A stretch of 63,563 bases of DNA, the filler included, from Folioceros fuciformis (taxonomy: Eukaryota): the NCBI GenBank assembly GCA_049999805.1. It is 23 parts of 23 records of this genome, joined end to end, with 100 filler letters (N's around TTAATTAATTAA, not from the genome) between each part and the next. Parts side by side here need not be neighbours in the genome. Positions count along the whole stretch, not along the records: positions 17,714 to 24,085 come from JBNGIO010000632.1; positions 24,186 to 30,402 come from JBNGIO010000633.1; 21 more parts are not named here. The stretch is one strand, 5' to 3'. Shown piece by piece: positions 5,666 through 46,617 of this stretch (position 1 is its first letter; every line of letters begins with the position of its first letter). Below the pieces are notes generated by a model. The model was not told the DNA's origin. It ran no database searches and saw only the letters and a program-made list of their open reading frames with translations. A program made the position numbers and the translations under genes.

Positions 5666-5977
5666 TCACATTTCCTCATCATCATGCAAGAAATACTGGG
5701 CGCAAGGAGCAAAGCAAGGAGAAACCTTTTCTACACTAGCGTGTTTGTTAGGATGACAAGTAGCAGTTTGTGGGGAAAGTTTGTGATGAAGGCAACTCAG
5801 CATGTGTTGATGGCATGGTTCTCTAGCGATAGCCTTAATCGAACTGAAGATCTCTTGCTTGCATTGTTTTGAACCTTCATTGGAGACAGAAGAAAGAGGA
5901 CCTGCTTGTAGATTTGGGATATGATGAAGAGTGAGTTCTTTTGCTTTCACTTGACTTAAACTAAAGATAGTAAGCAA
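5666..5977 (-). CDS. Partial Cys/His-rich ORF upstream of copia gag (ORF0 candidate, 5' end lost at gap)
   Basis: 103 open codons, same strand as gag and about 150 nt upstream of it. Confidence 0.35.
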   Translation of the reverse strand: MLTIFSLSQVKAKELTLHHIPNLQAGPLSSVSNEGSKQCKQEIFSSIKAIAREPCHQHMLSCLHHKLSPQTATCHPNKHASVEKVSPCFAPCAQYFLHDDEEM

Positions 5978-6160
5978 GTNNNNNNNNNNNNNNNNNNNNN
6001 NNNNNNNNNNNNNNNNNNNNNNNTTAATTAATTAANNNNNNNNNNNNNNNNNNNNNNNNNNNNNNNNNNNNNNNNNNNNGGCCACATCAATCCCACAGTC
6101 ATATCATTTCCCTACAATAGTCAACCCTCTCAATCACGTACCTACCAATCTTGCAACACG

Positions 6161-7771: not shown

Positions 7772-7783
7772 TGGTATCAGAGC
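7772..7783 (+). promoter_or_regulatory. Primer-binding site for initiator tRNA-Met
   Basis: TGGTATCAGAGC, the canonical plant tRNAiMet PBS. Confidence 0.92.
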
Positions 7784-7973
7784 TAGATGGACCCTGCTGC
7801 GCCCCCTTGTACCTGCGAAATTTGCAAGAGTATCTGCTGCATCAAGAACCTCCCTCATGAGCATTTCAGGATAGTAATTGCTGCACTAAAGAACTCTCTC
7901 AACAGGTTTGGGAGCATGGCAGAAGTCTTTCTTGCAAGCGCAATTAACCAATACTATTCTTGAGTCCTCTGCG

Positions 7974-8408
7974 ATGCCGAGACAAAGAGGAAGGCACAAC
8001 GCCCCATCTTTTGACCCCTTCGTAGGCAGGCTTGGACAAAGTGTGGCTGATCAGCATCATAACTTGCAGCATTTCTTCTCAACTTGCTGTCAACCCCTTG
8101 CACAACCTAGATCAGGTTCAAACACAAGTCAGGATAGACACTTACTGAAACCTGATCCCCTTGCAAATTTGAGGAACCAAATTCGACAAGAAATTGTAGC
8201 TACACTCTCAATTTCAGAACAAAGAGCACAGCTACTAGCACGTACCAACCTGTGTAGTTCTTGCTCACGCAAACTTGACACCTCGTCATACACATTTGAT
8301 AAACTTCATTCAAAAATTCACGATCTGGTCAAGGCACAATCAAACAACACCAAAGAGCATATTTCCTCTGTAAAAAAATCAGGTCCATTCACTAAGTCGT
8401 CACATTGA
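7974..8408 (+). CDS. ORF0: extra 5' ORF of copia element, 144 aa (MPRQRGRH...CSSC...coiled-coil-like C-terminus)
   Basis: Open frame between PBS and gag, preceded by a 58-aa Cys-rich ORF at 7787-7963. Confidence 0.55.
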   Translation: MPRQRGRHNAPSFDPFVGRLGQSVADQHHNLQHFFSTCCQPLAQPRSGSNTSQDRHLLKPDPLANLRNQIRQEIVATLSISEQRAQLLARTNLCSSCSRKLDTSSYTFDKLHSKIHDLVKAQSNNTKEHISSVKKSGPFTKSSH

Positions 8409-10623
8409 GTCCCTATCACGACAAGTATATATCTTGAACACTGCACAACATACAGAGCCTGCTGTCAGAACCTTGGATAAACCCTCAACCGTGCAAGAAC
8501 CATCATCTGATTTTATAGAAATTTTAGAAGCCTACCTTGCTTCCTTTCCAACTCAGCTTGAATAATTCCAGGCCTTGGAGGCTGAGGCATCTCAACCCTT
8601 GTGATTAGGGGGCACATGTCATATAATAACCGAGGGCAAAGATTACATAATCCAAACCACAGTGGTAGGGGTAGAGGTAGAGGCAGGGGTCGCCAACAGA
8701 ACAATAATCCAAACTTTGTGGTTGACCCTTTGTCCTTTAATCAGCAACCCTCGTCCTCACAGTCAAGTACAACCACATCTAAATATGTGGACAGTCACGT
8801 AGCTCAATTAGCTCGGGCTGCACTTGCTGCACATGCAGCTGTTTCAAATATGGCTCATCAGCCCAACACAGTGACTAATAATACTACCGTACATAACTTA
8901 AAGGTAGATTTCAAAGAAAAGGACAGATTTAATGGAACACAGTTTGACATCTGGTCATTAAGGGTACAAACCATCCTCAAAGAACATGAACTCTGGGGGG
9001 TAGTAGTAGGAACTGTACCCAAACATGCAGCGGGATCAGCACAGGCTGACATTGATGCTTGGACAAAACTGGATTTAAGAGCTCTGGGAGTAATCCAGTC
9101 AGCGCTGGATGGAACCATGATGTACCATACAAGGGATGTGGACTCTACCAAGGCTGTTTGGGACTCACTTACTCAAGTGTACCAAGTGACCAATGGAATC
9201 TCAATGGTAAGTGCTACGAGGGATTTTTACAACTTGAAAATGAAAGAACACGAATCAGTCGAACAACATGTCATCGAGTTCTGGATGCTCAGATCCAAAC
9301 TCTCTTCTAGTGGCACCAAAACGACTGAGATGCAGGTTGCCATTGCGTTGCTGTTATTCTTACGAGAAAGTTACCGGACCTTCATTAGCAACCAAAGCTC
9401 GTCGCTATGGAATCTTGCCTAGGCAACTCCAGTAGGCCAGGTACCTGCAGTCACTCTGTTCGACGTGATCGGAGCTCTCCTTGAAGAGGAATCCACATGT
9501 AAGGCAAGCAAAGGTGGCAACTCCCTCCGTGGAGAGACTTCAAACCGGGCGCTCTACACAAACAGAGGCTCAAGGAAGCAACCACCCCGTCAACCTTGGC
9601 CAAACAACAGCAGCAGTGGCAATTACAAGAAGTGACAGGCAACACCTTCAGCAAAGAAAAAAGGTCCTTGCAACTGGTGCCTAATCCCAGGCCACTGGGA
9701 GGCAGAATGCCGTAAGAAAAAGGCTAATGAGCCTCGTCGTACAGCACCACCTAAGTCCAATGTTGTTCACCGCAAATCCAGCACCATCCTAGTAGTCTGT
9801 ATGGTGTCAACAGCATCCAACAAACATGTCTGGTTCATAGACTTTGGGGCTTCATCCCACATTTGTCACTGCAAGAGGTCGTTTTCTGAATATAGGAATG
9901 TCACACCTGGTCAGTTTGTACTTCTCGGGGATGATAGTGGTCTCTAGATCATAGGTATAAGGTCTGTCCCTGTCCTACTTCCAAATAGAACAACACTTTT
10001 CCTCACAGATGTCCTCCATGTGCCCGCCATGGTAAAAAACCTGGTGTCTGTACGTAAGCTAACAACACACAACTCTTTGGATGTCTCCTTTAGAGGTCTG
10101 CAATGCACTGTCACGGATCCCCAATACAAGAACAAGGTTCTAGCAACAAGTGCTCCCATTCACGATCTATATCAGCTGAATATTTCCTCCAAGCTGGGTC
10201 TCAAACCTGCACAAGCACAAGCCAACGTCAGTCTTGAAACCAGAAAGAAAGAGGCAATCATGCTGTGGCACTGTAGACTTGCTTATGTAAATTTTGACAA
10301 ATTGAAGGCAATGGTGGCCAGTAACAACCTCTACAGAGAGCAATTTGTGCTTCAGTTTGCAAAAAGACAGTTCTGTGAGTCGTGCGTGTTTGGCAAACAC
10401 CATCGCCTGCCATACACGAATGTGAACCCTACTTGGGCCACCAAGGCACTAGAGTTGGTCCATACTGACCTATGTGGACCTATGTCCACAGCATCCCTAG
10501 GCGGAGCTCTCTATTTCCTAACANNNNNNNNNNNNNNNNNNNNNNNNNNNNNNNNNNNNNNNNNNNNTTAATTAATTAANNNNNNNNNNNNNNNNNNNNN
10601 NNNNNNNNNNNNNNNNNNNNNNN

Positions 10624-10843
10624 GCCGCACTTTGCTTCTCATACAGGTCACACTATTTCTGCCATAGCTCGTAGCTAGTGGTCTTGTCTTTCACGTTGAA
10701 GTAGACCGACTTTGACAATGTTATGATGATGGTAGACCTAGGCAAGCTCATCTAGGTCCTGCCACTCATCCTGAGTCATGCTAACAGGTTTCACTCCTAG
10801 CAACTTAATGGGCTTGATGTGCTTCTTCTGTACTAGAACATTA
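10624..10843 (-). mobile_element. Tnt1/Tork-like copia gag fragment, interrupted by the element starting at 10844
   Basis: Minus-strand translation VLVQKKHIKPIKLLGVKP..MTQDEWQDLDEL..STIIITLSKSVYFNVKDKTTSYELW. Confidence 0.75.
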
Positions 10844-11073
10844 TGTTGGGGAGCGTAATGCAACCCACACTCATGCATATATAGTCCTAGTTAGGTTTAC
10901 GTTAGGGCAACTCGAACGGTTAATTAGTTTAGGTTGTGGTTGCGTGTGCGCGCGCATGAAGGTAGGAATGGTTGATAGTTGTTGTACATGTAACTCGTTC
11001 TCGCGAACACATAAAAACAACTCTTTTTGTAAGCGTCTCTTGCGCTCTTGCTTCGCACCTTGAAAATACAACA
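10844..11073 (+). mobile_element. 5' LTR (230 bp) of copia element
   Basis: TGTTG...CAACA termini, immediately followed by PBS TGGTATCAGAGC (11074-11085). Confidence 0.85.
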
Positions 11074-13836
11074 TGGTATCAGAGCAACTTTGATCATGAG
11101 CAATCTGGCCAACACAATTAGTTGGATGCTCTATTTTCGGGATTTCCTCAATCCGGAATTTGCAAATTTGATAGCCGGTGCTATGAAGGGAATTCTCGCA
11201 CGCTGCCATGCCGAGGAGAGGTGTTTACCTGCAGAGGTGAGTGAAGCTCGCCTCACGCAGATTGTGGAGGGTCGGCGCCTGAGTGTTGGGAAGACGGGAG
11301 CATCCCTCTTCGGAGAATGCAAGGAGTGCTGCTGTGAAGCCATGGACATGCGCCCGCAGGATTTTCACCGACGTCACAACCCCTGCAGAAGACCTCGACC
11401 TGGACGGAACGCTTCCGGAAGACAAGGGCAACAGCCGTTGCTCAGTGAATCTCTGACCTTCCATGTACATCAAGATCCGACTATAAGAATTGTGCGGGAG
11501 AGACCCCACCAGTGCGTGTTTTCAAAGTTTCATCACGGAGAGTCTCCTATCCCACTTTCCAACACACAAGGAGACAACGCCCTGCTGTCAACGTACCTCT
11601 GTCCTCTACATCACCAGTACTTGGCGAAGTTCGAGACCTCACTGACACCTTGGCGACGTTCATTTCATCTGCCTTTAAGTGTTTCCAGCAATTAGGAGAT
11701 CTGTTGGATAACTTGCAGCAACATCTGCATGGAGTTGACGTCCACCTGTGTAGTCTGGACTTGCGTCTTCTTGTGACACTACAAAATGAGCATGTAAGAA
11801 AAACTAACAATGCTAAACTCTATGTACTTGAAATAGGCAGCACGAGCAAAGAAATGAGAAATGCCGAACCTAAAGGTGTGCCGGCGGCTCTCCATTCACT
11901 TCCATGAATGCAAACCGGTGAACGTGATGTTGTCTCGTAGCTAATTGACCAGTCACTAGAAGGAGATTTTCTAGATGGGATAGCATCGCTGTTCAACATG
12001 GCCGACATCAGCAATGACTTTGACGTTGATCGGCAAAACAACAATAGAGATGGTGATCGACGAGACAACACTGACAGTGTTACAGCTTGATTCATCAAAA
12101 ACATGCAGCTTGTGCGGTTCGACTTCAAAGAAAAGGACAGGCTCACAAATGGTGCCAATTATGATGTGTGGAAGTTGCGGATGAAGGGGATCCTGCTAGA
12201 GCTCTCCCTGTGCGGTCACGTTTTTGGTGACCTGCCTCGTCCAGCTGACAAACTTGCACAAGCAGAAGGACAACTTTCAGACGACCAAGTTCTTCGGGAC
12301 TTCCTGGACATTTGTGCACAAAGTGCAATCAGACTCAAACTCACTGAGGAGATGGTAACTGCCACCTCGGCTACCACCACGTCAAAAGAAATGTGGGAGC
12401 ATCTTAGTATGGTTTACCATGGGAAGGACATGATGTCCAAGATGTCCGCAAGTGTGAAGTACTATAACATGAAAATGCGAGAAGGTGAACCTTTGGACCA
12501 GTTTGTTGGAAAGTTTAGAGTAGCGCGCCTTAAGTTGGAACAGTCTGGGACCCTTGTGAAAGAATTTGAAGCGTGTATGAGGCTATTATCTGCACTTCCA
12601 CCAAGCTACACAAATTTTGTCACTAGTCAAAATGCAGTTCTGAGACTAGCACAGTAGTTGGCTGTTGTGACAAAAATGAAGGAGGAGGACATACCTTCTC
12701 TAGATGTGAACGAACTTGTAGGTGCTCTAATGATGGAGGATGTGAGTAGGTAGACCCTTGCTGCTGCAAAAACACCCAGAGGGTAGGCGTTGTTCACGTC
12801 AAGGCCAAAAGGGCCACGAAAGGGACCTGGTGAACCCTACAAACCCAGAGGACTTGGATTGAGCTCTGCAAGCGAGGCATCATCCAGCAAGAAGAGGCAA
12901 GGCAACTGCAACTGGTGTGGGTTGCCTAATCATTAGGAGAGAGACTGCAGAAAGAAAAAGAATGGCGAACCTAGGCAGGTTCTGACTCTTGAGGCGAATA
13001 ATGTGGCCAAGAAGGAGAAGGCGACGACGTCTGTGCTGATGGTTTAAGTTTCCCCTCTCTCTGAGTCTCCCTCCCCCTCTAAAAGGTTAAGGCCTGCGCC
13101 ATCACAGGTCAGGAGCTCACCTAGAATCCTGACAGTCTGCTTATATGCAACAGAGTCACACACACCAAGTTGGTTCATAGATTCAAGGGCAACTGCACAC
13201 ATTTGCCATGATAGGTCTGCATTTTCTCAATACATCCTCCACTCTCTAAGTCACAGAATGTCTTGCTAGGGGATGACAGTGAGTTGCAGATTAGAGGTGT
13301 GGGTACTGTTACCTTAAGGTTGGAAAATGGCAGTAACTTGGTCTTGCACAACGTGTTGCATGTCCTTGCAATCACGAAAAACGTGGTGTCAGTGTGTCAG
13401 ATGGTACGCAGTAGAGAGCTAGAAGTAACATTCAAAAAGTCCATGTGCGTGATCAAAGAGTCAGGCAAACCCATTGCTGCAGGTCACCTGTCTCATGACC
13501 TGTTCCTTCTGAATGTCTCCAGTCTCCCGGTACCATCAACACAGCTGGCGGGGGTCAGGCCCAATGTATCCGATTCAGATGTGACCAAAATCTAGCACAT
13601 GCGCTTGGGGCATCCAAACCCTTGCAAGTTGAAAGACATGAGCACACATGACATCTATTCAGATGGAGTACCAACAAAGCTCACCTCTCTACCTTTTTGC
13701 GAGGCCTGCGTGTATGGGAAGCACCACAAAACTGCGTTCCCAAAGGGAGGAGGCACGAGAGCAACTAAGGTCCTGCAGCTGGTGCATGTAGACTTGTGCG
13801 GGCCAGTCTCAACACCCTCTTTTGGAGGAGGGGTGT
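11074..13836 (+). mobile_element. Ty1/copia internal region: PBS, extra 5' ORF (11096-11907, frameshifted), gag, protease, integrase start; degenerate
   Basis: gag RFDFKEKDRLTNGANYDVW at 12103; CNWC knuckle; WFIDS; FCEACVYGKHH, LQLVHVDLCGP. Confidence 0.9.
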
Positions 13837-17713: not shown

Positions 17714-17933
17714 GAACCCCCTATCTTTCGTTTATATTGTTGCGGAGGCCTAAGTGCGGGGAGCCTGTTCTAGAACCCCCTATCTTTCGTTTATATTGTT
17801 GCGAGGCCTAAGTGCGGGGAGCCTGTTCTAGAACCCCCTATCTTTCGTTTATATTGTTGCGGAGGCCTAAGTGCGGGGAGCCTGTTCTAGAACCCCCTAT
17901 CTTTTATTTATATTGTTGCGGAGGCCTAAGTGC
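17714..17933. repeat. Tandem minisatellite, at least 3.7 x 59 bp (runs into gap)
   Basis: gaaccccctatctttcgtttatattgttgcggaggcctaagtgcggggagcctgttcta. Confidence 0.95.
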
Positions 17934-18128
17934 CTTGCCTTTCCTAGACATACTAGGATGCATGTTTTTTTCTATTTTTCGTTTTTCATCAATTTGGATT
18001 TGCTCTCAACTGATGGATTGGGTCCATGCTATCTTCTACAGATCTATGGAGGGGGTCACCGAGAGGTCGTACACTACTCAACAACAGATGCCCAACCATA
18101 ATGCAAAGATAGTTATAAAAGAAGACCA

Positions 18129-18373
18129 GCTCTGATACCATGTTAAAATCCTAGCAGTAGGATTGCATCTAATCTAACATGATCAAGATGCAATGCTCAG
18201 AGAGATATTTCGTGTTAGTCTCTTAAAAGGTGTATACAAAATGTGTCTTAAATAGTGTCACTGAGTGTATCTTCCAAAGGCACACCCATTCATAATAATT
18301 AACTACTATTAATTATGGTCTACGATAACTAGCTAGTCAATAAGGTTACGGGCAAATTATCCATTCCGTAACA
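18129..18373 (-). mobile_element. LTR (18141-18373, 233 bp) plus tRNA-Met PBS of a minus-strand element inserted in gypsy gag
   Basis: gctctgatacca (18129-18140) is the reverse complement of the PBS; TGTTA...TAACA termini. Confidence 0.85.
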
Positions 18374-23284: not shown

Positions 23285-24462
23285 GTTATTGTTCTTACAA
23301 TAGTAACTCATATGCACAATAGTCTTAACACAGTTAGTAATTACAGACTAACCCGCTGCCCTGGTCATAAAACTTGAGTTAGAGTAATTATGCCGTGAAT
23401 GTGGCTTATGCACATCTCCATCCTACAAGGAAACCCGCTCCTGCTGGCCTTCAATAACCACTCACACCATCAATGTCGGTGTAGGGCACACTAGCCTCAT
23501 TATAGCTGCATGTAGTATAGACCTTGCATTGCGGGATTGGTGTGCACAATAAGCACTAAATGGTTGCAACACGAGCTATTCCACTTAATATGTGAGTGCT
23601 CACATTGATTGGTCTGTATCCGAATTCTCTTTATGAGTAATAATACCCAATCCATTGTGTGAACCTCTAAAGTTTGGGGTAGTGGGTTGTTTTGGTTGAA
23701 AAAGGTTTAATAGTGGTATGGTTTGGTTTTCTTTTTCAACTTATTTTTCCTAATTTTCCTTTATTTTCTGGTCATTTTTCCTATTTCTCTTTGTGCTAAT
23801 TGGGTTAATTGACCAGGAAATAGTGGGTTTGGTTATAAGAGTGGGTATAGGTTTGGTCCCAGAGCTGGGAAGGTTTAGGTTCGGTACCATGCCATAGGGT
23901 TGGGTGATTAGTTTAATATTAATTAAAGATATATAATATTAAATAATTAAATAATAATATAATAATATTAAAATAATATAATAATGGTTTGAACATAGGA
24001 ACGGGTATCTGGGTATGTCAGTGTCAGGGGTCAAGGTCTGACGATAGGCTGGCTGATTGCTTGGCTGGCATGAACGGCCATGGAGNNNNNNNNNNNNNNN
24101 NNNNNNNNNNNNNNNNNNNNNNNNNNNNNTTAATTAATTAANNNNNNNNNNNNNNNNNNNNNNNNNNNNNNNNNNNNNNNNNNNNTCACGTCCCCTCGCT
24201 TGGGCAAGCCTGCTGACTTTGTATGCACCGCTCGCGTGAACCTAATGTATCTTGCATTCTACTTCTGCGTGCATGTGATTGCTCTATCTCCTACATGCCA
24301 TATTGCGATATGGTATCAGTGCACATCGCAACTTCTTGAATTGCACTACATTCTTGTTTTCAGCCTTGGAGAATGCACCATGTGTGCTGCATGTCTTCAA
24401 AAAGTGCAAACCAGGAAGCTGGCGTCTAGGAGAGAGGACCCCTTTTTCTGGAGAGCCTCAAC

Positions 24463-25005
24463 ATGCCTCGACGAGGCTGGAATCGACAACGCCAGAATCA
24501 GCGTTCATGGAAACAGTCGAATCTCCAGTCATCATCTGCTGCTGCTTTACAGTCTGTTGAGGAGGGTTTGAGCTTTTACCAGAGGAGTAGAGGGGAAAAC
24601 TCTGCTGGTCAGAACGTTCAGGCAAGATTGTGCACAACTTGCACAAGTGATCTTCGTGCTCGCTGCCGCTGTTCACCAAATTACACATCTGCGAGCAGAT
24701 ATCCAGGTTTTGGACACAGCCAGAATACCATCAGGTGTTCCTACAGAAACAATCACTTCCAACTATTAGCCATCTTGCAATCGCTTAGTTGGCAAGGAAA
24801 AACACACACAAAATTACAACAAAGGTCAGAAAGTATCTCTGCGGACAGAGGGCGAGATACAACAAATCTGTTGGTTACAATTTCCCGCAAGATAGACCTT
24901 TTGGACAGTAAAGTGTGTAGTCTGCTATATGTTCTCATTGCGCTTGACTTGTTTCTTAGGAAGACTGAATCTGCATCTAAACATGGGTCTCCTTCTGATC
25001 CGTAG
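24463..25005 (+). CDS. ORF0: extra 5' ORF, 180 aa, Arg-rich N-terminus, CTTC/CRC cluster, C-terminal heptad repeat
   Basis: MPRRGWNRQRQNQR...LCTTCTSDLRARCRC...LLVTISRKIDLLDSKVCSLL; ends 13 nt before the gag ATG. Confidence 0.62.
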   Translation: MPRRGWNRQRQNQRSWKQSNLQSSSAAALQSVEEGLSFYQRSRGENSAGQNVQARLCTTCTSDLRARCRCSPNYTSASRYPGFGHSQNTIRCSYRNNHFQLLAILQSLSWQGKTHTKLQQRSESISADRGRDTTNLLVTISRKIDLLDSKVCSLLYVLIALDLFLRKTESASKHGSPSDP

Positions 25006-25018
25006 ATGCATTTAGGTT

Positions 25019-28000
25019 ATGGTTTCTCGACCTCCCTCATCTGAAGGAGGGTCTACTTCCTCATCTACACCACACACACCTCCACAAAGATCTCAGCTCC
25101 TCAGGATTCCATTGAGAACAACCCCTAAGGGTCAGTCAGCATCAAACATGTCTGTATCTCAAGGAGGAGGAGGAGGTGGCGGTGCAGGAGGTAGCGGTGC
25201 TGGTGGTGGACAGGCACCTCAAGTACCTGCACATACAACCGTCACCCATTTCAAGGTCGAGTTTAAGGACCGGGATCGCTTTAATGGCAGCGAGTATGAA
25301 ATTTGGACAATTCGCTTGCGTACCATTCTGGAAGAGCAGGATCTACTGGACATAGTCTTGGGAACAAATGTGAAACCACAAGTTGGTTCCCCACCTGCTG
25401 TTGTCGAGGCTTGGACAAAGGCTGATCGCCGGGCTCGAAGCATCTTAGTTGCAGGTCTTGACAAGAATATGTTGCACCACGTGCAAGGGCTTGACACAGC
25501 TGCAGAAATGTGGTCAACTTTTGATCAGATGTTCCAATCCAAGAACTCTGCATCTATGGTCAACTCAACTAGGGCGTTCTGGCATCTCAAGATGAAAGAA
25601 CACGAGCCCATTGAAGCTCACCTGAACAAGTTTCGAGCTCTTAGAGCACGCTTGGCAGCATGTGGCACCAAGCTGGACGAGACACAGGCTGCGACAGCCC
25701 TACTCATGTCTCTGCCTTCCAGTTATCGAACCTTTGTATCTTCTCAAAATAACAATATGCGAGCAGTCGGAGGAGGAAATCTTACAGAGGTTATTGGTGC
25801 ACTATTAGAAGAAGAGGCCACTCGACATGGGAGTAGGCATGAAGGCAGATATGAAGGTAGCTCTAGTCGAGCCCTTTACACATCCAAAGGGAAAGGATCT
25901 CGCATGCCTAGCGGGAGGCTAGGTGGGAAGCGTTTCTCAGAGTCAAAGCCACACAATGTGAAGAAAAAGGGAACTTGCAATTGGTGCAAGATTCCGGGTC
26001 ACTTTGAGCGTGACTGTCGTAAGAAGGCAGCCGGAGAACCCAAGCGGGAAGGATCCAATGCCGAGTCACACACGGTTACAGTCAAGAAAACTGGTACTAT
26101 CCTAGCAACTTGTCTTGTATCCTCAAACGAGGACAAGAGATGCTGGTTCATAGATTCAGGTGCTTCACATCATGTCTGCAATCAACATGAGGCTTTCACT
26201 GAGTATAAACCTGGCCTAAACGGACAGACTATACGTGTAGGGGATGATAGAGCTCTGCCCATTCTTGGAATAGGGTCAGTCCCTCTTAGATTGCCGTCTG
26301 GCAATGAAATTGTGTTACCAGACACCCTTCATGTCCCTAGAATGATGAAGAATTTGGTGTCGGTAACCAAAATGAAGGCAGCATTGCCTAGGGTTCGTAT
26401 TTTGTTTGAGTCTGAACCTGATGAATGTCACATCGAGCAAGATGGGCAGTTGCTGGCCATTGCTTATCCTTCAAATGATCTGTATAAGTTGCAGTGTACA
26501 CCTTCTCGGATACATGCATCTTCACATCTCTCACAGGCTGAGCAGTCTGCCAACTTCAAACTGTGGCACCATCGGCTTGGGCACATAAATGTGCGAAGGA
26601 TGAAGGCAGCGGCAGCTGGGAATCTCTACAGAGAACCTCTTAATCTTCAACCACAGTCTAAGCTGTTTTGTGAATCTTGTATCTATGGCAAACATCATAA
26701 GTTGCCACATACAGATAAAAATCCTACTAGAGCTAATTCGTTACTAGAATTGGTTCACTCAGATTTGTGTGGCCCCATGTCAAAGCATTCTTTTGGAGGT
26801 GCTAGGTATATTCTCTCCTTCATTGATGACTGGAGCAGATTCACGATAGTGTATTTTCTATCCAAAAAGTCACAAACGTTAGGGTATTTCAAGGACTACC
26901 TAGCAAATGCACAACGTCAAACCTCTCATCTTCTGAAGACTCTCAGAACAGATGGTGGAGGTGAGTATGGATCAAATGCTTTCAGGCAGCTGTGTAGAGA
27001 ATTGGGTATTTCCAGACAACTTACCATTTCCTACACATCGAAGCAGAATCCCATAGCTGAGAGAAGTAACGGCATACTTCAGGAACAGGCTAAGGCCTTC
27101 TTAGCTCAAGCAGGCCTATCCCTAGGATATTGGGCTGAAGCCGTAGCAGCTGCAGTCTATGTGAAAAACAGACTGCCTACTGCCTCTGTGCCTGGAAGCA
27201 CTCCATTTGAGAGGTGGACAGGACATAAACCCAGAATTCTACACCTTCGGGTGTTTGGTAGTCCAGCCTATGCCTTCATACCAAAAGAGAAGAGACGGAA
27301 GATGCAACCGAATGCAGAAAAATTTATCTTTGTGGGTTATTCTGAGGGTATAAAAGGATATAAATTATTCAATCCTGAAACGCGGAAGATAATTCATGCT
27401 AGAAGTGTCGTCTTTGATGAAGCTGCTATTTTGGATTGCACTCACACTTCACTTCCTGAAAAACAGTCAATAACACCCTCAGTCCCATCTGAGGTAACTT
27501 CAGATTCTGATTCTGATGATTCAGGTCTGACACAGCCAGATGATGATCACCTTTCCAGTTTCGGCGATGAAGTAGCTGAGGTGACATCAGAACCTGTACA
27601 GGAATCTAACATACAGGTTTTACCATCATCAGATCAGGATGATGAGATTTATGCTCCTGAAGTTATCAGTCATTTCACATCTGACTTCGAATCAGAATCT
27701 GAAGTTGCACAAAATGCTGTTGTGGAATCATCTAGTGATGAGGAGCCACCGACTGCACTTCGTCGGTCATCTAGACCTCATCCTTCTAGGGATAACTGGA
27801 AAGTTTGTCCATATTCACCACCCAGCAACGCCCTACGTGCTCCCAGGCGATTAACTCGTGTATCAGCACATAATTCTACACAGGTCCCTGATCAACCTAT
27901 ACAGTTTGGAACTATACCTACTGTAGGTGAATCCTCATTTACAGAGGGAGCTTCTGAGGCTAATATTAAGGAGTTACCTTCAGAGGGAGCCAGCATTGCA

Positions 28001-29676
28001 GATTCTGGACAGTCCCAGGTTGCCTCAATCCACACTCTTATTGCTGACGCACTTTCAGTTGCAGAACTAGTTGGGGAACCTGCCACAATGACAGAGGCAC
28101 TGTCAGGTCCTCATGGAGCATAATGGCAGGCTGCAATCAAGTCAGAGTATGATAGTCTTGTTCAAAATGGGACATGGAAGTTGGAGCCTTTACCAGCTGG
28201 AAGGAAACTTGTTACTTGTAAGTGGGTGTTTAAAACTAAGTTGAACCCAGATGGATCTGTTGCATGTTATAAGGCTAGGCTGGTTGCACGAGGTTTTACT
28301 CAACGACCAGGACTTGACTATCAGGAAACATTTTCTCCTGTGGTCAGGTTTACCTCAGTTCGTGTGCTCATGGCTTTTGTAGCTCAGAATGATCTGATTG
28401 TACATCACATGGATGTAAAAACGGCTTTCCTACATGGAGAATTAGAGGAAGATGTCTACATGCAGCAGCCGGAAGGATATGTTGATAAAAAGTTTCCTAA
28501 TCATGCCTGTAAACTTATCAAGACAATTTATGGACTAAAGCAAGCACCTAGGGCTTGGTTCCAGAGGTTTAGCACCTTTCTTAAGTCCTTGGGTTTTAAG
28601 GAGAGTGATGCGGATACAAATGTGTATCTCTGTACAGACAGTGACAACTTTGTTATTATCGCTCTTTATGTTGATGATGCGTTACTTATCACAAATAGTC
28701 CTAGCGAGCTGCTTGTGAAGGTCAAAGGACTATTACAGAAGCATTTTGAAATGACTGACCTTGGTGTCCTTCGATTTTTCCTAGGAGTTCAAATTCATCT
28801 TGTCCCTGCTAAAGGGGTGGTACTCCTGCATCAGGCACACTACATCAACCTGATGCTCAAGATTTTTAATATGGAGGATGCCAAACCAGTCAGTACTCCT
28901 ATGGCTGCTGGTGCTCGACTGTCTAAACTTGACAGTCCAACTACTGATGATGAAAAGACTGCAATGCAAGCTGTTCCTTACCGGAAGTTTGTAGGGTTTG
29001 CCTTATATTTGTCAACCAGAACACGACCTGATCTTAGCCATGCCTGTGGTTCTCTTTCTCAATTTGTGGAAGAACCTGGTACAGCTCACTGGACTGCAGG
29101 AAAACGAGTAATGCGTTATCTCAAGGGTACCAGAAATCTAGGATTATGTTATCGAAAGACACCACTATGAAGAAGCTTTTCCTACAGGGATATACTGATG
29201 CAGACTGGGGCGGGGACTCAGATACAAGACGGTCCGTGTCAGCTTACTGTTTTATGCTCGCTGGAGCTGCAGTCTCATGGCAATCGAAGAAGCAAACCTT
29301 TGTGAGTACTTCCACAACAGAGGCTGAATATGGCACAGCTGCAGAAAGCTGTAAAGAAGCAATTGCTAATCGCAGGCTTCTTACGGATATCTCCCAGGAG
29401 CAAACAGAACCGACACCAGTGTTCTGTGATAATCAATCAGCGCTGCTGTTGGCTAACAATCCTGTCTATCATGCCCGCACAAAGCATATAGACTTGCATC
29501 TTCACTATGTTAGACAGGCCCTTACTCGCAAAGAAGTGGCACTTACATATGTTCCCACGAATGCTAACTATGCTGATCTTCTCACAAAACCACTCAGTAG
29601 GGAGAGGCATGAGTCGCATGTTCAGAGTATAGGCATGGTCGACATCACGCCATTTCTACCCTACGTCTTAAAGTAG
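25019..29676 (+). pseudogene. Copia gag-pol polyprotein with one premature stop (TAA 28121-28123) and one frameshift (about 29165)
   Basis: CNWC-x4-H-x4-C knuckle; WFIDSGAS; HSDLCGP, RTDGGGEY, AERSN (DDE integrase); YVDD; YTDADW, STTEAEY, DNQSA. Confidence 0.95.
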
Positions 29677-30502
29677 ACACTCACATTTGGTGTGCCGGTC
29701 TGTCAGTCGGAGTCACATTCCGAGTCTGACCATCTAGCATTCCTCCTAGATTTAGAGGGAGATTCTGGTCTCCACAGTGAGCATTCACAGTCCGAGTCGC
29801 TGTCTGTTGTCATGTACGTGCACGCCCGCAGGTATCCTGTTGTCGGTCGATTCTGTAGCTCTGTGAACACCAGCATTTGTTCTGAATTTCACAGGTGCAG
29901 CAACTTTGTAACTTTCAGATGATAGGTATCTGGTCTGGACGTACCGTGGCAGTGAACAACAACGCCTGGTTTGACAACTTCAGATCTCTCTCGACTTTTC
30001 AGATCCAAGGTTTCCTTGTCGGGATATTGTGCTGCAGGTTCTACCACTGTAGGCTTCCAATCTCCACCGTCAACACGGTTGAGGTAACACTCATTCTTGC
30101 CATCTACGGGGAAGGAGGTTTGGACTGCAGCGTCTACAGTTTGGACACAAGTCAACCAGTTCGAGGAGTTTTCTCAACGCAAGGCTCAACACCGAGCACA
30201 ATATCAAGAGCACCATCATTGTAATCAGCGCACGATTCACGAAGGCGGGCGGCAAGCGTAGGCTAGGTTAACCACAAGCGTCTAAGAGGGAGTGTCGCAG
30301 GCATATAGGGTTTATGCCTTTAATAATTAAAATATCCGCATGCTAGAAACCTAGCTAGTCTTAATTACCGAATCGACACAGGTTGTGGCGATTCGGGTAA
30401 CGNNNNNNNNNNNNNNNNNNNNNNNNNNNNNNNNNNNNNNNNNNNNTTAATTAATTAANNNNNNNNNNNNNNNNNNNNNNNNNNNNNNNNNNNNNNNNNN
30501 NN

Positions 30503-33185: not shown

Positions 33186-34266
33186 ACACATCTCCATTTC
33201 TGGTGGGCATCTCGTCAGACATTGATTCTGTTCGGCGTGAGGTGCTCAATGTGGCAAATGATCTTTCCAATTTAACAGTTCACTTCAGATCTGCACCAAT
33301 TTCTGAGGTGCAGCTTGTAGCAGCGCTGTTCTTGGAATCGCTTGTTCCCACAAAGGAGTGCAAGCCTTGTGCTGGCCATCAGCCAGGTGCTGGCTCTCAA
33401 TGATACACAAGGGTTCAGATCTGAAGCGGCATTCTGCCATAGCCAGCAGCTCTGCAAGCCTGGTTTCCTGCTCTCAACCGGCGCCCCTGATCAAGGTGCC
33501 TGTTGGGATAGGCCTCCAGCTGTGCAATTCCTGGCCTTGGCTTTGTGAATGGCTGCAATTCTGCACCGCTTGTAGTGTCTTGCACCTACACATTAGGTTT
33601 AGAGCATAAGTTAGTTGGTTGTCGTGTGACTTGTCTGGTTTTTAGGGTTTGGTACACCGTTTCAGGTCTACCTTACCGCTTCACCAGCAACTTAAGTGCA
33701 CCTGTTCACACAGACCCCACATTAGTTCTACAGTCACACATAAAACACACAGCACTTAGAAGATACTAATCTTAGTGTATGTCTCTTTGGGACAGTTCTG
33801 ACAGTGATTCAGACGGAGGTGAACCATTTGCCTGGTTGTTCTCACTCCCTAATCTTGTTCATACACCTGTCAACACACACATTCAAGTTGTCACAATGGG
33901 TTCCACTATCCCAGCACCTGTCACCCAATCTGTTGGTTCTATCTACTCAGGAGAATTCAAAGAAAAGGACAGGTTTGATGGGACACCTTCTCGCTTTGAG
34001 AGTTGGAGAGCTCGCATGAAGGCAAACCTCAGCGCTCGCGATGTGTGGGAGTTTGTCGATGGATCTCTTCCGGACCCTTCCATTGTACCTGCTGGTGGAC
34101 AACAACCCGCACAGGATGTCATTGACAAGTGGAAGAAGGGCAACAAGATTGCGTTTGTGATCTTGCTGTCAGGACTTGATGAAACCACTATTTGGAAGTG
34201 GAATTTCATACTACGGCAACAGCTGCATGGAAACAACTTGTGGACACGTACCAAGTACAAAATATC
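33186..34266 (+). mobile_element. Copia fragment: end of the 5' extra-ORF region plus gag N-terminus (33779)
   Basis: GEFKEKDRFDGTPSRFESWRARMKANL..DVWEFVDG; upstream coiled-coil-like ORF remnant 33188-33403. Confidence 0.82.
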
Positions 34267-36182: not shown

Positions 36183-37561
36183 AGAGACAGGTTGCAGGTG
36201 GGGGACCTGGACAAGTTGCGAGAATTCCTGGGCAGACAAATCACGGCGAGAGGAATGGGCACCGGAGGGGTGCAGGAGGTGGACCTACCCGGGCTGACTG
36301 CTGCGATGGTGCAGGCCCAAGCAGACCTCCTAGATCAGGCTGCTAGGGCCCTAACCTGGTTAAGTGTACAAGGGGAGCGAGAGGCCGAGGCTCGGGGAAA
36401 GGAGGAGAAGGCTCGTGAGCGAGAGGCTAAAGCAAGGAGGCAACTAGCGGAGTCAGAAATGGCGCGGCAACTGCTGGAGGAGAAGCAACGGGTCCTGGAC
36501 AGGGAGAAGGCTCAAGCCGAGGAAGAGGGGCGCGAGGCGAGGGCTTGAAAGAGCAACAAGGCGTTGAAAGAGCAACAAGGGACCCTGCTAGCTCAGGTGA
36601 GGGAGGCTCACGAGACTAACCTGGAGATGCAACAGGAAATGGCCAGGGCACAAGAGATGGAGATAGCCGCTGTGGAGCAGGCTCAGAAGTTTGCTGACAG
36701 ATACAAGCGAGAGCGGGATAAGGCCAGAGAGAGAGTGAAGGGGAAGAGCAAGGCTGGACACCCGAGTCAGTCGACGACCCCGGTAGCAGAAGGGGCTACC
36801 GGTAGCCGAACCAGGGGAACGGTAGTCGGGTAGCCGACAGGGCTACCGGTGGCCCAGCGAGGCCGAGGATAGCTGAAGAACCAACCCTGGAGAAGACGGA
36901 GGCAGCAGTAGGGGCGCCTGCCCCTAGGCGCTCTAGGAGGGTGACCCGTACCAAGAGGATAGAGCCGGAGGAGGTACCAGCTGGGCAGGCAGAGAACCTT
37001 CAGGTACCCCAGCAGGAGGGGGAGCAGGCAACCCGAGGTAGCCCAAGGGAGGACGGGGTAAGCACCTCTGTTATGACAGAAGGTCGGATTGCGCTGCAGT
37101 ATAAGGAGGAGGCCTCCTATGTGCCAGGCCTGTATGTAGAAGGGGCCAGAGTTCTGAAGCTGTTTCTGTATGTACGTATGGGCACAGGAGGGACGCGGGG
37201 CTACGTCCTACAACTGAGGACGCGCCTGGGACTCTACCACTACAGATGGTGGGTGATAGGGCTGCCCCACTGCTATGCGGAGGCAGTTCTGGAGGAACTG
37301 ACGGAAGAGGAGGCCTAGCGCTGGGTAGAACGGGGGCCTGTGGCTGTCCTCAGCAACCAGAGAAGGAGGAGGGGTGGTGGACCACAGCGGCGGGACCCAC
37401 CTGCGCCGCCAGCCAGGCCCAGCAGTAGCAGCAGTGATGTGGAGATCCTCTGGGAGGATCTGCCGGACCAACGGAGAGGCAGAAGAGCGAGAGGAGGAGC
37501 AGCGAGGGGTGACGTGCGAAGGCCAGGAGGAAGCCGCCAGCGGGGTGGGACAGGGCGATAG
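36183..37561 (+). pseudogene. Degenerate Glu/Arg/Ala-rich coiled-coil ORF, probably a TE accessory ORF
   Basis: Consecutive ORF pieces 36192-36548, 36564-36833, 36941-37318, 37340-37561 separated by single stops or frameshifts; no introns apparent. Confidence 0.45.
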
Positions 37562-39859: not shown

Positions 39860-42800
39860 TCGTATTTATTCCTAATCATACTTAGATAAATATGCAGGGT
39901 AAACTCAGACGAAATGGTGTGACCCTATAGGGTAAGTCGGGTAGACAAGATAACTAATATTTAAGTCACAACGCTGATGTAGAAAGACGCTTTTATTATT
40001 CAATTGCAAATACATAGGAGAACTACTCTCAGAATTGCTATGCTCCCTAATTACATTGTTCTCATGGTATCAGAGCCATGCTGAAACCCCTAGAGGAATC
40101 CTGGAATCATGCCGAGGCAGGGCGCTTCCAGTAGGGGCAGATTTGAGTGCGCGCCTGCAAAGGGACTCGCCGCCGCAGGCTGCCCACTTGATCACTCGGC
40201 GCACCTCTTAGCAGAAAGTGCGCGCGTCCCTAGGAGAGGGAGAGCCTGGCGCCCACAGCGGCAGTACTCTCCACCCCAGTGCCAGCAATTTCCCCTACAA
40301 TGCGGCCACGCCTCTGGCACCCACTGTTCCTGCAAACAATCCATGCCGGCACGCTATTCGTTCAATGCTTGGGGGCCCTCGCCAGCACCTGGAACACCTG
40401 CCAAGCACCAGTGCAACGTAGACATCAACCCACACAAAGGGCTGAGGAAGATTCTTGACAGGTCTCAGAGTATCCTCAGTCGCGTGGAGGGATTACTGTC
40501 CAATTTGCTTTCGTATCAAACTTCCTCCAGAATCCACGCCCAACGTTCTGACCCCGAATTTAAGACCCCTAAATCTCCCACCACTGACAAAATTTGTGAG
40601 AGCATCTGCCAGGTTGTAGATTACCTCAAGAACCTTGATCAACAGAGGCGGAATTCAGGGGACTCTCGTACCAATTTGGGACTAGACGGCGTCGGGCCCT
40701 AGACACTTCCGCTGCTAGGGAGCACCGACTCTGGCTAATGGGCAAGTTCGGCACCCTAGACGCGAACCAGCGTGACGCGCCTCACGCGCCTCGCCGAGAT
40801 CAACCTCGACGCCTCTCCATCGGGCCACCTGATGAACCTCTTCACGTTGCTGGGACATGACCGTTAGTAACGGCCCACTTGGACTCAAATCCTAGGGCTT
40901 ACCCCTTCGACCAACCCCCTCGGAAATAATAGCAATAAATATTATTTCCCCCATCCGGGCCTAACAGGCCGGGCTAGCTCCCCCGTCATCTTAGGTGCAC
41001 CCATGCTGCAGGCGTTAGTGGCGAAGCCTTCAACTGGGCGCAAGACCTAGAAGCCATTAACGCAATGGCATCCGAACTTTGTGCCCAACTAGGCTCCGCC
41101 ATCTACGCCCCAACATCAGCCACTAAGGGAACGAGAGCTCAATAGCAGGAGTCACGTGCACACCTACCTCCCTGTACCACTGTAGCCATAGCTCTTTGGT
41201 CGGCGTAGGTGTCCATGGTCACCCCCGCACAACTCAACTCCCTTATTAGCGGTCTTCAACACCTTTCCTTACACACCCCAGCCCAACAACCAGCCATGGC
41301 AGCATCGTCAAGCACACCTACCTTTACCTCAGAACTCAAAGAGAAGGATAGGTTCAAGGGGTCTGGCTACACTGTGTGGAGAGTCAGGATGAAGGCCACC
41401 TTGCTGGCCAAGGGAGTCTGGACCGTTGTTGATGGGACCTACCCCAAACCTGACCCCCAACGCCAGTCCTACCCCCACAGCCGATGAAATTGCCAAGTGG
41501 GAACAGCATAATGCCATTGCTGTTGCCCTGATTATCGGGGGGCTGGACACAGACTTGGTCCGAGAGGGAGAGTACCTCACATCTGCACATGGCATGTGGG
41601 ACCAGTTAGAAAAAACACACAAGATCCAGAACATGATGATGCTATGTGCAGTCAGGCAGGAATTTTTCTCCCTAAAATGAAAGAAGGAGAAAAGGTGTCC
41701 TCACACGTCAGCAGGTTTTGGCACCTTCGTGCCCAGCTCACTGCGATGACAGGACAGAAGATGTCAGAGGTGGACGCTATCGCCCAACTGTTGGGCAGCC
41801 TTCTTGCCTCCTACCAGACCTTTATTACGAGCCAAACGGCCCAATACGCGCTGCCATAGCTGCCTCCGGTCAGATAGTGACCATCACCTTAGAAGAGGTG
41901 ATTGGTGTGCTATTCCAAGAGGAGCAGAGTTGAGCCTTCTCATGTGCTTTCAGGAACAAGGGAGAGAAGGCATTAGCTACAAACCTCCGCAAGGGAAGAA
42001 CCCGACTTAGAAGTACAGCAATGCAGGGACAAAGGGGGGAACCTACAAACCCCATCAAGAGAACCGGCATCTATAACTGGTGCGGCCTCCCCGGCCACTG
42101 GGCCAAAGAGTGCCGAAAAAGAAGCCCTCACGCCAGCAAAAGTCAGCCGCAAACGTGGCTGTAAGACAGAACAAGTCGGGAGACTCAAAGGCCCCCATGA
42201 AGATACTAACAGTCTGCCTGTCCAGCACGCTTAGTGACGACAGCTGCTGGTACCTCGACTCTGGGGCGACGGCCCATATCTGCAAGAAGGGGAACTTTTG
42301 AGAACCCTTGATTTAACACAAAAAGGTGGACAGGTATTTCTTGCAGACGAGTAGAGCAAGACAAGTCTGTGTATTTAGGGCAAGGGTACTTGTGTCTTCT
42401 GCCTCCATGATGGCACTGAACTAACCCTGACAGATGTCATTTATGTCCCAAGCATGGCCAAGAACCTCATGTCCATGAGCCAGCTCATGAGACAGCGGGT
42501 CTTCTACATGCACGCAGACTCTGAGCATTGCTGCTTCTACAGGCAGTCATCTCCCCACACATGTGCATTTGAGGGATTGCCTGAGAGCAACCTATATAGG
42601 CTTAACATTACCTGTTCCAGTTTAGACCCACACATAGAGGCCGCCCACTCAACTACAAGTCCTAATCTAAGTGAGGCACAACAAGCCCTGCTATGGCATG
42701 CCCACCTATGGCATGTTAATAAGTCGAAGTTGATTAACATGTCAGCCCTAGAGTGCCACCGAGAATCTCTCCCCAAATGCTTCAAGCAGTTACCTGTGTG

Positions 42801-44245: not shown

Positions 44246-46617
44246 TGGTATCAGAGCCATGTTTTTGCTTTATTAATAAGGCTTGAACAATATGTCGAGG
44301 CGGGGTGGCTCTAGAGGTCCTCGTTGTGGTGGACCTCCGAGACAATTTCGTCGTGGAGGACGTCCACCAAGACATTCAACACCTTTACCAAGTAATCCAG
44401 TGCTGGACCTCTATGAATATAGCTATCCTACTATTCGGCTAACAAATTGTCCCTATAGCGAGCGCTGTCAGGGGAGGGGGCAAAACCTTGATCCATTAGA
44501 GGCATATAGATCATCTGACATTTTGTTCAGATCACGCATTAATTGTGAGTGCAACTTTAGAGCCGAGGGACTGCCACCTGCTTGGCACTCTGCATCACAA
44601 CTAGAGCAAAGATATATCAGAAACGCCATCAAATTACAAGAAATTATTGTTAACGAGACACAAGTTCTTTTATTCAAGGTGGAGAAAGCACTCTCCCTTG
44701 CCAACTCCAATCAAAAAGTCCTCAAAGACAAACTTGACAGTTTGGATTCTGACACTGAGCAATCCATCACTGAATGCAAGCAGGACATCCAGAAAGACAT
44801 CAACGAAGTTGCTAATCTTCTGAGCATAATGGATGCTAAGCTGCGAATTTTGGAGGTTGGATGTTCTGATTCTGTATCAAATCCCACAGAGCCATGAATT
44901 CTTCCGCTGCAAACGAGCGGAGCGAGAGCAGCAGGAGCAATACTTGTCCAGATTTGAAGCAGTGCCTTCTTACTTGCATCTCTTCCATCAAACTTTCATG
45001 TAGCTTTGTGGTTGGTGTACCTAACTTGTCGTTTCACATGGACAAGACACGACGGTTAGGGTTTGTCCTTGAGCAAGTTTTCTTGAATATGAAACGTTTT
45101 TAAGTTTTAGGGTTTCTTTGTACCCGTTCACTGTAGACTTGAATGGCATGCTTAGGTGGTCAGCGTGTACACGGCCCAGCACCTTTGTTGCTGGTTCTAT
45201 CTTGCTGATCCCTATAGCACTCCCTTCCTGCATATAGTGGTTAGTTTCACAAAGTTCCTTGAAACTAAACTAGTCACCCATTCAGTGTAGGTATAAGTGT
45301 TCTTACCTGTTCATTAGAAACCATAGTTCCTGATGCCATAAGTACCTTATGACCACAACCTCACAATTAAATGCATTGATAAATAGTTTCAACAACCTTA
45401 GTCTGCAATCTACACTCAACACAAACATGGCAACCCATGTTTCTTACAGTTCTGATGTTAAAGACAAGGATAGGTTTAGAGGTACCGGTTATTCTATCTA
45501 GTGAGTGCGAATGAGAACAATCCTCATAGCGCGAGGTGTATGGTCCAATGTTGATGGTTCTTTTAAGAAGCCTAGCCCACAAACCAAACCTAACGAATAT
45601 GCCAAATGGGAGCACAATAATGGTGTAGCAATGGCCGTCATCGTCAATGGGCTGGATGCAGCCCTTATTCCAATGTGGAATTCCTCACATTGGCAGAGGA
45701 CATCTGGAACCAGCTGGAGAAAACCTACCACACAACCACGATGGCCACATTATCAGCAGTCCGTATGGAGTTCTATACACTACGCATGAAAGAGGGTGAC
45801 AAAATGGCTGTACATACTAGCAAATTTTGTCACCTTTGCGCTCAGATTCAGCCGACCACTAAAACACAAATGACAGAATCTGAAGCTATTTCCCAGCTAC
45901 TCACCGGTCTACCACCCTCTTATCAATCTTTTATCACTAGCTATCAGAATGGCCCTGCTACAGCTGCTGCATCAGGAGGAACTCAAATAGCTGCTATTAC
46001 AATGGAAGACATAATAGGAGCCCTTTACCAAGAAGAGCAGACCCGACTAACATCGGCTGGCCTGCACAAACAATATAAAGGAGAACGGGCATTAGCTGTG
46101 AATTTTTGCCCTAAAGGAAAGGGCAAATTTCAGAGGGGGCAATTCCCCAGGACAGCCCAACGATAGGACTAAGCCCTCAAGTTCAACACGACTAGGCACA
46201 TGCAATTGGTGTGGCATCCCTAGCCACTGGGCACGTGGGTGCCGCAAATGTAAAGCTAGTGAGCCCCAGAAACAGGCAAAGCTTGCTGCAAGTGTTGCAG
46301 TGAGGGACAAACTTGTTGAAAAGGCACTAGTCAAGATCCTCACCATGTTTGTCAAGTTCGACATATGATGAAGAGAGCTAGTACCTCGACTCCGGGGCTA
46401 CCACATACATCTGCAAAAGGAGGGAGTCGTTTACTTCCCTCAACCTTGCTCATGTCCATGACAAGGTCTTTTTAGGTGATGAGCAATCCAAGACTAGCCT
46501 GCATATAGAAGGAAAAGGTCAATGTGTGTTCAGGTTACACGATCACACAAACCTAATACTAGAAGATGTTCTCTTCGTGCCTAGCATGGCAAAGAACCTC
46601 ATCTCTATGAGCCAGAT
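44246..46617 (+). mobile_element. Copia element 5' part: PBS (44246-44259), ORF0, small ORF, gag (45427), PR; degenerate
   Basis: CTCA|TGGTATCAGAGCCA; SDVKDKDRFRGTGYS; CNWC knuckle; YLDSGAT; MAKNLISMSQ. Confidence 0.9.
44292..44897 (+). CDS. ORF0: extra 5' ORF, 201 aa (RGG-rich N-terminus, C-x5-C and CEC, long coiled coil)
   Basis: MSRRGGSRGPRCGGPPRQFRRGGRPPR...CPYSERC...NCEC...IKLQEIIVNETQVLLFKVEKAL...IQKDINEVANLLSIMDAKLRIL. Confidence 0.65.
   Translation: MSRRGGSRGPRCGGPPRQFRRGGRPPRHSTPLPSNPVLDLYEYSYPTIRLTNCPYSERCQGRGQNLDPLEAYRSSDILFRSRINCECNFRAEGLPPAWHSASQLEQRYIRNAIKLQEIIVNETQVLLFKVEKALSLANSNQKVLKDKLDSLDSDTEQSITECKQDIQKDINEVANLLSIMDAKLRILEVGCSDSVSNPTEP

Follow-up and report, generated by a model that had tools for sequence, protein, structure and literature searches.

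The stretch of Folioceros fuciformis DNA analyzed here, referred to below as the window, comprises 63,563 bases. It is no single genomic piece: 23 contigs of 1.0-6.4 kb are artificially chained through 22 identical linkers (N44-TTAATTAATTAA-N44, a six-frame stop linker; e.g., 1804-1903, 2916-3015 and 62280-62379). Because the linkers are artificial, distances and neighbourhoods across them are biologically meaningless. Retrotransposon pieces, copia and some gypsy, are present in most of the contigs. Five copia elements, designated A to E and located on five separate contigs, contain a long leader from the PBS (primer-binding site) to gag, and in each leader lies an extra sense open reading frame (ORF), ORF0. 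The leaders begin at the following sites:

7772..7783, plus strand: PBS of element A (contig 6080-10523)
11074..11085, plus strand: PBS of element B (contig 10624-13836)
24311..24322, plus strand: PBS of element C, TGGTATCAGTGC (contig 24186-30402)
40065..40076, plus strand: PBS of element D (contig 39860-43409)
44246..44257, plus strand: PBS of element E (contig 43510-46685)

The plus strand of the window contains TGGTATCAG five times, at exactly these sites, which are also the PBS positions of the original prediction, made from the sequence alone. An iMet-type PBS (TGGTATCAGAGC, or TGGTATCAGTGC in element C), as expected of a copia element, is present at six sites, and we take it to match the 3' end of plant tRNA-iMet. 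The sixth site, at 18140 on the minus strand and absent from the original prediction, has no ORF0 within its 426 nt of internal sequence. This minus-strand element (17714-18151), which includes a 59-bp tandem array of 3.7 copies (17714-17933) about 200 nt inside it, may belong to a different lineage or be non-autonomous.

Measured from the PBS end to the gag ATG, the leaders span 832 (A), 1017 (B), 696 (C), 1138 (D) and 1091 nt (E), in good agreement with the 0.7-1.2 kb originally predicted. Ordinary copia loci from metagenomes (L001, L005 and L007) start gag 39 nt past the PBS end, which makes the long leaders of elements A-E unusual. The ORFs found in these leaders, together with two partial upstream ORFs on other contigs, are:

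7974..8408, plus strand: ORF0 of element A, 144 codons, starting MPRQRGRHN
11208..11907, plus strand: ORF0 remnant of element B, starting MPRRG, with a stop after 10 codons and the rest in other frames; ends ...HSLP-stop
24463..25005, plus strand: ORF0 of element C, 180 codons, starting MPRRGWNRQRQ and ending ...SPSDP-stop
40109..40702, plus strand: ORF0 of element D, 197 codons, starting MPRQGASSRGR and ending ...GVGP-stop
44292..44897, plus strand: ORF0 of element E, 201 codons, starting MSRRGGSRGPR and ending ...NPTEP-stop
33188..33403, plus strand: C-terminal piece of an upstream ORF on contig 33186-34266, 71 codons open from the contig start, heptad-patterned; a copia gag motif follows about 550 nt downstream
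5669..5977, minus strand: partial sense ORF on contig 4902-5979, 103 codons, truncated at the contig end, with a minus-strand copia gag downstream of it

The ORFs of elements A, C, D and E are thus present as predicted, while some details need correction. Element B does carry a frameshifted ORF0, but its true start is at 11208, as identified by the start motif described below; the ORF proposed to begin at 11096 ends at 11695 (199 aa, the longest ATG-initiated ORF of this leader) and, given the motif start and the later frame breaks, is partly fortuitous. The C-terminal heptad/helical part of element B is open in the frame 11449-11904. Of the two partial ORFs, that at 33188-33403 is open from the contig start as described, whereas the one placed at 5666-5977 is confined to the minus strand (open from 5977 to 5669), the sense strand of its gag. 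In element A, a further open, helical-looking piece lies in another frame at 8374-8562, and the sequence suggests that this ORF0 is frameshifted and was originally longer. Element A also has a 58-codon Cys-rich ORF at 7787-7963 (MDPAAPPCTCEICKSICC...), which begins 3 nt downstream of the PBS and stops shortly ahead of ORF0, and elements D and E have a short ORF starting from an ATG that directly abuts the PBS (AGAGCCATG).

The lengths of the leader ORFs exceed those expected by chance. When the longest sense ATG-initiated ORF of each leader is compared with 2000 dinucleotide-preserving shuffles, the observed length is reached by 14 shuffles for A, 1 for B, 1 for C, 15 for D and 0 for E; the longest antisense ORFs in the same leaders extend over only 42-91 codons. 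The ORFs also start alike. Among the 2175 ATGs on both strands of the window, M[PS]R[RQ][GR] is encoded at five, 7974, 11208, 24463, 40109 and 44292, one in each leader; the Arg-rich start reported originally is therefore real, with the count raised from four to all five through the motif in B. The codons used for it vary: Arg is encoded by CGA in C but by AGG/AGA in A, D and E, and Pro by CCG or CCT. Since the codons differ and the residues are the same, the constraint would act on the peptide and not on an RNA signal.

ORF0 and gag are separated by 13-512 nt and a change of frame, so that ORF0, like the 5' additional ORFs of other elements, is a sense ORF outside the polyprotein. In elements A, B, D and E the separation is 195-512 nt, with stops in all frames; in element C the gag ATG lies 13 nt past the ORF0 stop, in another frame and in a strong context (G at -3 and G at +4).

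The proteins had been described as not visibly alignable, which is true of most pairs and not of C and E. The ORF0s of C and E are colinear from about residues 37/54 to both C-termini, with a Smith-Waterman score of 59 that is reached by none of 1000 global and one of 1000 local-window shuffles. The other pairs lie at or below the detection limit: B-E (25/1000 shuffles), B-D (47/1000), B-C (61/1000) and D-E (67/1000) are marginal, and the C-D similarity is not significant (250/1000). Four of the six available ORF0 C-termini (B, C, D and E) end in Pro-stop. The predicted Cys clusters are borne out in three elements, as a four-Cys cluster ending in CxC at residues 57/60/68/70 of C, 58/65/73/75 of D and 53/59/85/87 of E.

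AlphaFold models of C (from a 6-row alignment) and E (single sequence) have basic N-terminal halves with a pLDDT under 50 and a C-terminal two-helix hairpin, formed by predicted helices 87-125 and 130-174 in C (pLDDT up to 94) and 101-150 and 156-188 in E (pLDDT 66-87). These long helices lend support to the C-terminal heptad repeat of the original prediction, as does a heptad test (28-residue window, 300 shuffles, seven pieces), which also rewards proline-free stretches: the observed score is reached by 0-6 of 300 shuffles in five of the seven pieces, namely those of B, D and E, the 33188 partial ORF and A's extra frame. The repeat is not supported in the main frame of A (48/300) or in C (53/300). 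When residues 98-201 of E are modelled as two copies, the self-association score is 0.01, which decides neither way.

Element C identifies the carriers. Its gene order (gag-protease-integrase-reverse transcriptase-RNase H) and its RVT_2-type reverse transcriptase, as assigned by Pfam, are those of a plant-type Ty1/copia element, with E-values of 1.5e-34 for Retrotran_gag_2, 5.9e-22 for Pol_BBD, 4.8e-12 for gag_pre-integrs, 1.7e-10 for rve, 3.2e-28 for SH3_retrovirus and 3e-50 for RVT_2. A tblastn search with the element C polyprotein finds the same order of gag, protease (PR) and integrase (INT) in A, B, D and E, to the contig limits, and in several other contigs. The coding parts downstream of ORF0 are:

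8616..9422, plus strand: start of the gag ORF of element A; homology to the C polyprotein continues to 10523
12103..12657, plus strand: start of the gag ORF of element B
25019..28123, plus strand: gag-protease-integrase ORF of element C, 1034 aa, with a CCHC knuckle
28370..29676, plus strand: RVT_2 and RNase H ORFs of element C, separate and broken from the upstream ORF
41215..41487, plus strand: gag start of element D; gag-pol is frameshifted several times downstream
45349..45501, plus strand: gag start of element E; gag-pol is frameshifted downstream

Breaks in gag-pol are present in elements A and B as well. The N-termini of the gag ORFs differ: in A, an Arg/Gly repeat (GRGRGRGRGR; 8616-8720) precedes the conserved gag domain, and a helix-like motif (…QLN.LI…L.L…) is common to D and E and missing in A and C. 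Over polyprotein columns 80-450, gag-PR is 32-46% identical between carriers (A-C 46%, D-E 45%, C-E 35%, B versus the others 32-38%); on these identities, elements A-E are deeply diverged families. With gag-PR at this level and most ORF0 pairs at or below the detection limit, the description of ORF0 as fast-evolving is upheld.

An unconstrained frame would not stay open across carriers with 32-46% gag-PR identity, which argues that ORF0 is constrained. Together, ORF length, the start motif, the C-E similarity, the four-Cys/CxC cluster and the predicted architecture point to an additional cassette, coding in the sense direction, that sits between PBS and gag. We consider it probable (at about 0.62) that ORF0 is a real accessory gene, inherited from an ancestor shared by a set of plant-type Ty1/copia families and kept open while far outpacing gag-pol. 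It would be the first cistron of appreciable length in the genomic RNA, and its product a small, basic protein (about 180-200 residues) with an Arg/Gly-rich disordered N-terminus and a Cys cluster that possibly binds zinc; the helical hairpin could mediate self-association. Such a protein would bind the element's own RNA, in ribonucleoprotein formation or chaperoning, or in RNA protection. The 'nucleic-acid-binding oligomer' of the original prediction is a possible product in this sense, as suggested by composition and helices.

How gag would be translated downstream of ORF0 is clearest in element A. There, the 639 nt (7977..8615, plus strand) from the start codon of ORF0 to that of gag contain no ATG in any frame; shuffles have 8.6 on average, none of 2000 is as low, and CAT occurs 14 times on the same strand. 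No other interval on the window's plus strand is free of ATGs over so great a length. The gag ATG is the very next one after that of ORF0, which points to leaky scanning, a case that is solid for element A only; some ribosomes would scan past the ORF0 ATG and start at gag. At each of the five ORF0 start codons, position -3 is a purine and +4 is C or T, a context that is adequate and not optimal and that corresponds to the classical arrangement for leaky scanning. In the other elements, the number of ATGs between the ORF0 start and gag is 4 versus 8.5 expected in C (64/2000 shuffles), 12 versus 17.1 in E (137/2000), 8 versus 11.1 in D and 18 versus 16.5 in B. Here gag could be reached by reinitiation, splicing or an internal start, or the intervening ATGs may have been gained in decayed copies.

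Searches for relatives of ORF0 gave no match. In Pfam, four of the five ORF0s have no family at E<=1 and A has only Allexi_40kDa, at chance level (E=0.12; 12.4 bits versus a cut-off of 26); the plant mobile domain typical of Ogre (PF10536) is found in none. ORF0 of C shares words with 85 candidates among 5.8 billion clusters, none at E<=0.01, and a profile of six ORF0 pieces has 0 matches at E<=0.001 among 1.84 billion representative proteins; the ESM Atlas, queried with ORF0 of E and C, returned no usable match. A profile search of the PDB gave only coiled-coil noise (E 1.9-3.4, the best being the coiled coil of the TPR nucleoporin at E=1.9), and in a fold search of BFVD with the C model none of the 88 listed matches is at E<=0.001, the best among the matches listed being 0.71. 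These blanks are weak evidence because the databases are also without close relatives of this lineage's polyprotein: the gag region as a query has one match, at 22% identity, and PR-INT has 872 matches at E<=1e-20 among 8000 candidates scored, with a top identity of 52% and about 35-44% for the remainder. The ORF0 start motif is at the N-terminus of none of the 120 PR-INT relatives listed.

In viral contigs, no loci related to the C polyprotein are found, and the pattern of a PBS followed after 20-50 nt by a degenerate MPR(R/Q)G start has 0 occurrences. The same pattern occurs at nine loci in metagenome contigs. Four of these are simply gag starts of ordinary copia elements (MSSKGNF..., with one of them truncated); the others are two 14-codon ORFs, a 33-codon ORF in a high-GC bacterial-looking contig, a 275-codon high-GC ORF and a 93-codon ORF running off its contig end. 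Four non-gag candidates tested have no copia homology, and these contigs yielded no external ORF0 member. At one metagenome locus (L004:1694-2036), the same PBS is followed 50 nt later by an MPRQG ORF of 93 codons to the contig end, Gly/Ala-rich and with 55% GC, which could be a gag start or ORF0-like. In the published texts that the literature search covered, no account of a copia lineage with a 5' ORF turned up, and an earlier description may exist elsewhere.

Among the contigs, that of element C is self-closing: in public contigs from two DNA runs its end (30402) joins its own start (24186) with one letter between, so that the contig is a circular permutation of one long terminal repeat (LTR) plus the internal region, the form expected of a collapsed repeat. 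In run X3, from the contig C sample, the differences are strongly enriched in C>T (281) and G>A (342), as in a bisulfite-converted library. Reads of one run guessed to be RNA match contig C in three short low-complexity pieces only. Elsewhere in the window, there are Ty3/gypsy pieces at 2964-3806 (minus strand, contig 3; RT_RNaseH/RVT_1) and 47173-48474 (plus strand, contig 17; a Retrotrans_gag ORF of 433 aa). The contig at 36183-38020 has 57% GC and is strongly purine-rich, with a plus-strand frame rich in Glu, Arg, Lys and Ala that looks coiled-coil-like (e.g., at about 36370-36540); the window's longest ATG-free run is on the minus strand, from 37636 to 35797, across a linker. No Rfam families are found in the window.

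Several observations weigh against ORF0 as a gene. ORF0 of element A is short and aligns with no other ORF0 beyond the start motif, and that of element B is frameshifted. Composition-adjusted BLASTP gives only E=0.17 for C-E, and phmmer against 825 six-frame ORFs of the window gives no ORF0-ORF0 match below E=0.36, with the other ORF0s ranking second or third among the non-self matches of C, D and E (E 0.36-0.98). The codon-usage signal is weak once stop codons are left out of the score: in six of seven pieces the ORF0 frame ranks highest, D failing, and the value is reached by 6 to 367 of 500 shuffles. Protein language-model recognition is low in C and E alike, the two values being, in descending order, 1663 and 1345 versus the 2300 reached by 91 of 100 known-family proteins, a value that according to the tool does not decide whether a gene is real. 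Each ORF0 start is preceded by one to three ATGs downstream of the PBS, and C, D and E have 4, 8 and 12 ATGs, respectively, ahead of gag, so that simple scanning does not explain the expression of these three elements. The weak codon usage, the non-significant cross-matches, the low recognition values, the ATGs ahead of ORF0 and the lack of homologues in protein searches would suit a leader that is non-coding and acts in cis, in packaging, dimerisation or translational control, with ORFs that are at most upstream ORFs (uORFs) whose peptide is irrelevant and with shared features that are relics or chance. Long untranslated leaders do occur in some copia lineages, e.g., BARE. We nevertheless regard such a leader as unlikely here. 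All five ORFs beat their shuffles, and 180-200 codons are far above the size of typical regulatory uORFs; the start motif is at exactly five ATGs, with codon differences of the synonymous type; C and E are similar up to the stop codon, the position of the Cys cluster is kept, and the helices are confidently predicted.

The short distance between ORF0 and gag in element C raises another possibility, that ORF0 belongs to Gag as an N-terminal part, connected by splicing, programmed frameshifting or termination-reinitiation; decay or collapsed-repeat assembly would then account for the apparent separation. The contigs are short repeat contigs, and the self-closing contig C may be a collapsed assembly; Gag N-termini, as in A, are likewise basic and of low complexity. 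This is improbable, however, in view of the stop-filled gaps in A, B, D and E and of a gag that has its own ATG and, in D and E, its own conserved N-terminal helix. The four Pro-stop ends look like a conserved terminus rather than a fusion point, and a profile comparison of ORF0 with gag (hhalign) gives a probability of 0.1%, which also rejects ORF0 as a gag duplicate.

Hordeivirus gamma-b and pecluvirus P15 are small proteins with a basic motif, a Cys cluster and a C-terminal coiled coil, a plan that ORF0 resembles in its Arg-rich N-terminus, four-Cys cluster and C-terminal helices. By analogy with these and with the cysteine-rich proteins of tobra- and carlaviruses, ORF0 could be a suppressor of RNA silencing, its basic motif and Cys cluster binding small or double-stranded RNA and its coiled coil multimerising. 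Fast evolution fits a protein engaged in an arms race, and an anti-silencing role has been proposed, on structural grounds, for 5' additional ORF (aORF) proteins of gypsy Tekay elements in the available part of one study (PMC11728184). The resemblance is one of architecture, which would fit many RNA chaperones and nucleocapsid-like proteins equally well, and Pfam, PDB profile and BFVD searches reveal no sequence, profile or fold link to viral suppressors; we consider this role rather doubtful, although it is compatible with the RNA-binding product outlined above. Capture of genes by LTR retrotransposons is documented, as far as the accessible text of the source goes (PMC7264820), so that ORF0 might conceivably be a transduced fragment of a host gene or a nested foreign insertion. 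An origin of this kind is most improbable for an ORF with the same plan and start motif in five families whose gag-PR is 32-46% identical, with 0 matches among 1.84 billion representative proteins and no Pfam domain.

An extra gene before gag has so far been well documented mainly in the gypsy superfamily; a 5' ORF open across copia families as diverged as these would mean that copia also evolves 5' accessory genes. Extra ORFs are common in LTR retrotransposons and, to our knowledge, none has an established function; ORF0 is a compact candidate for a transposon-encoded RNA-binding or anti-silencing factor, and the ATG-free design of element A is a concrete case of putative polycistronic translation in a plant retrotransposon. 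A more far-reaching scenario envisages an old copia lineage with an RNA-binding first cistron on a bicistronic RNA, leaky scanning to gag-pol, and a protein that counters silencing or controls the fate of the RNA. We hold it unlikely; if it were true, 5' accessory genes would be convergent in both LTR-retrotransposon superfamilies and in pararetroviruses.

Among known systems, the ORF1p of LINEs is a first cistron with a coiled coil and a nucleic-acid-binding domain, followed by an ORF2 that is translated by an unconventional route. ORF0 is similar in being a small basic first-cistron protein with long helices, encoded before an enzymatic ORF on one RNA. It differs in having no RRM/CTD or Transposase_22 match, in its reversed domain order (basic part first) and in its host, an LTR element that already has a Gag with a CCHC knuckle. 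Rice tungro bacilliform virus (RTBV) and badnaviruses have, after a tRNA-Met PBS, small ORFs I and II that are without internal AUGs and precede the polyprotein, which is reached by leaky scanning; in badnaviruses, proteins of the P2 type join a coiled coil to a basic part that binds nucleic acid. Element A has the same arrangement, a small ORF after a tRNA-Met PBS and no ATG up to the polyprotein start. These viruses are Caulimoviridae and not copia, ATG depletion in the window is complete only in A, modest in C and absent in B, and neither the PDB profile nor the BFVD search links ORF0 to such proteins by sequence or fold.

Within Ty1/copia, the extra ORF singled out in the available portion of the REXdb survey is the env-like eORF-3'F of SIRE, which is highly heterogeneous and fast-evolving (PMC6317226). 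It resembles ORF0 as an extra, fast-evolving sense ORF in a copia lineage and differs in location, lying 3' of pol before the 3' LTR, whereas ORF0 lies between the PBS and gag. The survey counts only eORFs of at least 250 codons (PMC6317226); its supplementary tables cover 582 copia elements with eORFs and may include copia 5' eORFs. At 144-201 codons, ORF0s fall below this threshold and would go unrecorded; surveys with such a cut-off miss this class of ORF. The closest counterparts are the 5' aORFs of gypsy elements (Ogre ORF1; RIRE3, RIRE8, Retrosat-2 and sunflower Tekay 13-2 among Tekay), which, according to the parts of two sources at hand, are sense ORFs between the 5' LTR/PBS and gag that have no known domain, encode largely disordered proteins in which a few helices are well predicted and basic stretches resemble an NLS (nuclear localization signal), and are kept within a family with no amino-acid similarity between hosts (PMC11728184, PMC6317226). 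Compared by description, the Tekay protein is larger (about 400 aa), Pro-rich and from Ty3/gypsy, whereas ORF0 has 144-201 aa, an MPR(R/Q)G start and a four-Cys cluster and belongs to Ty1/copia. In position, disorder, helices and basic stretches the two are alike, and ORF0 is probably the copia counterpart of the gypsy 5' additional ORFs.

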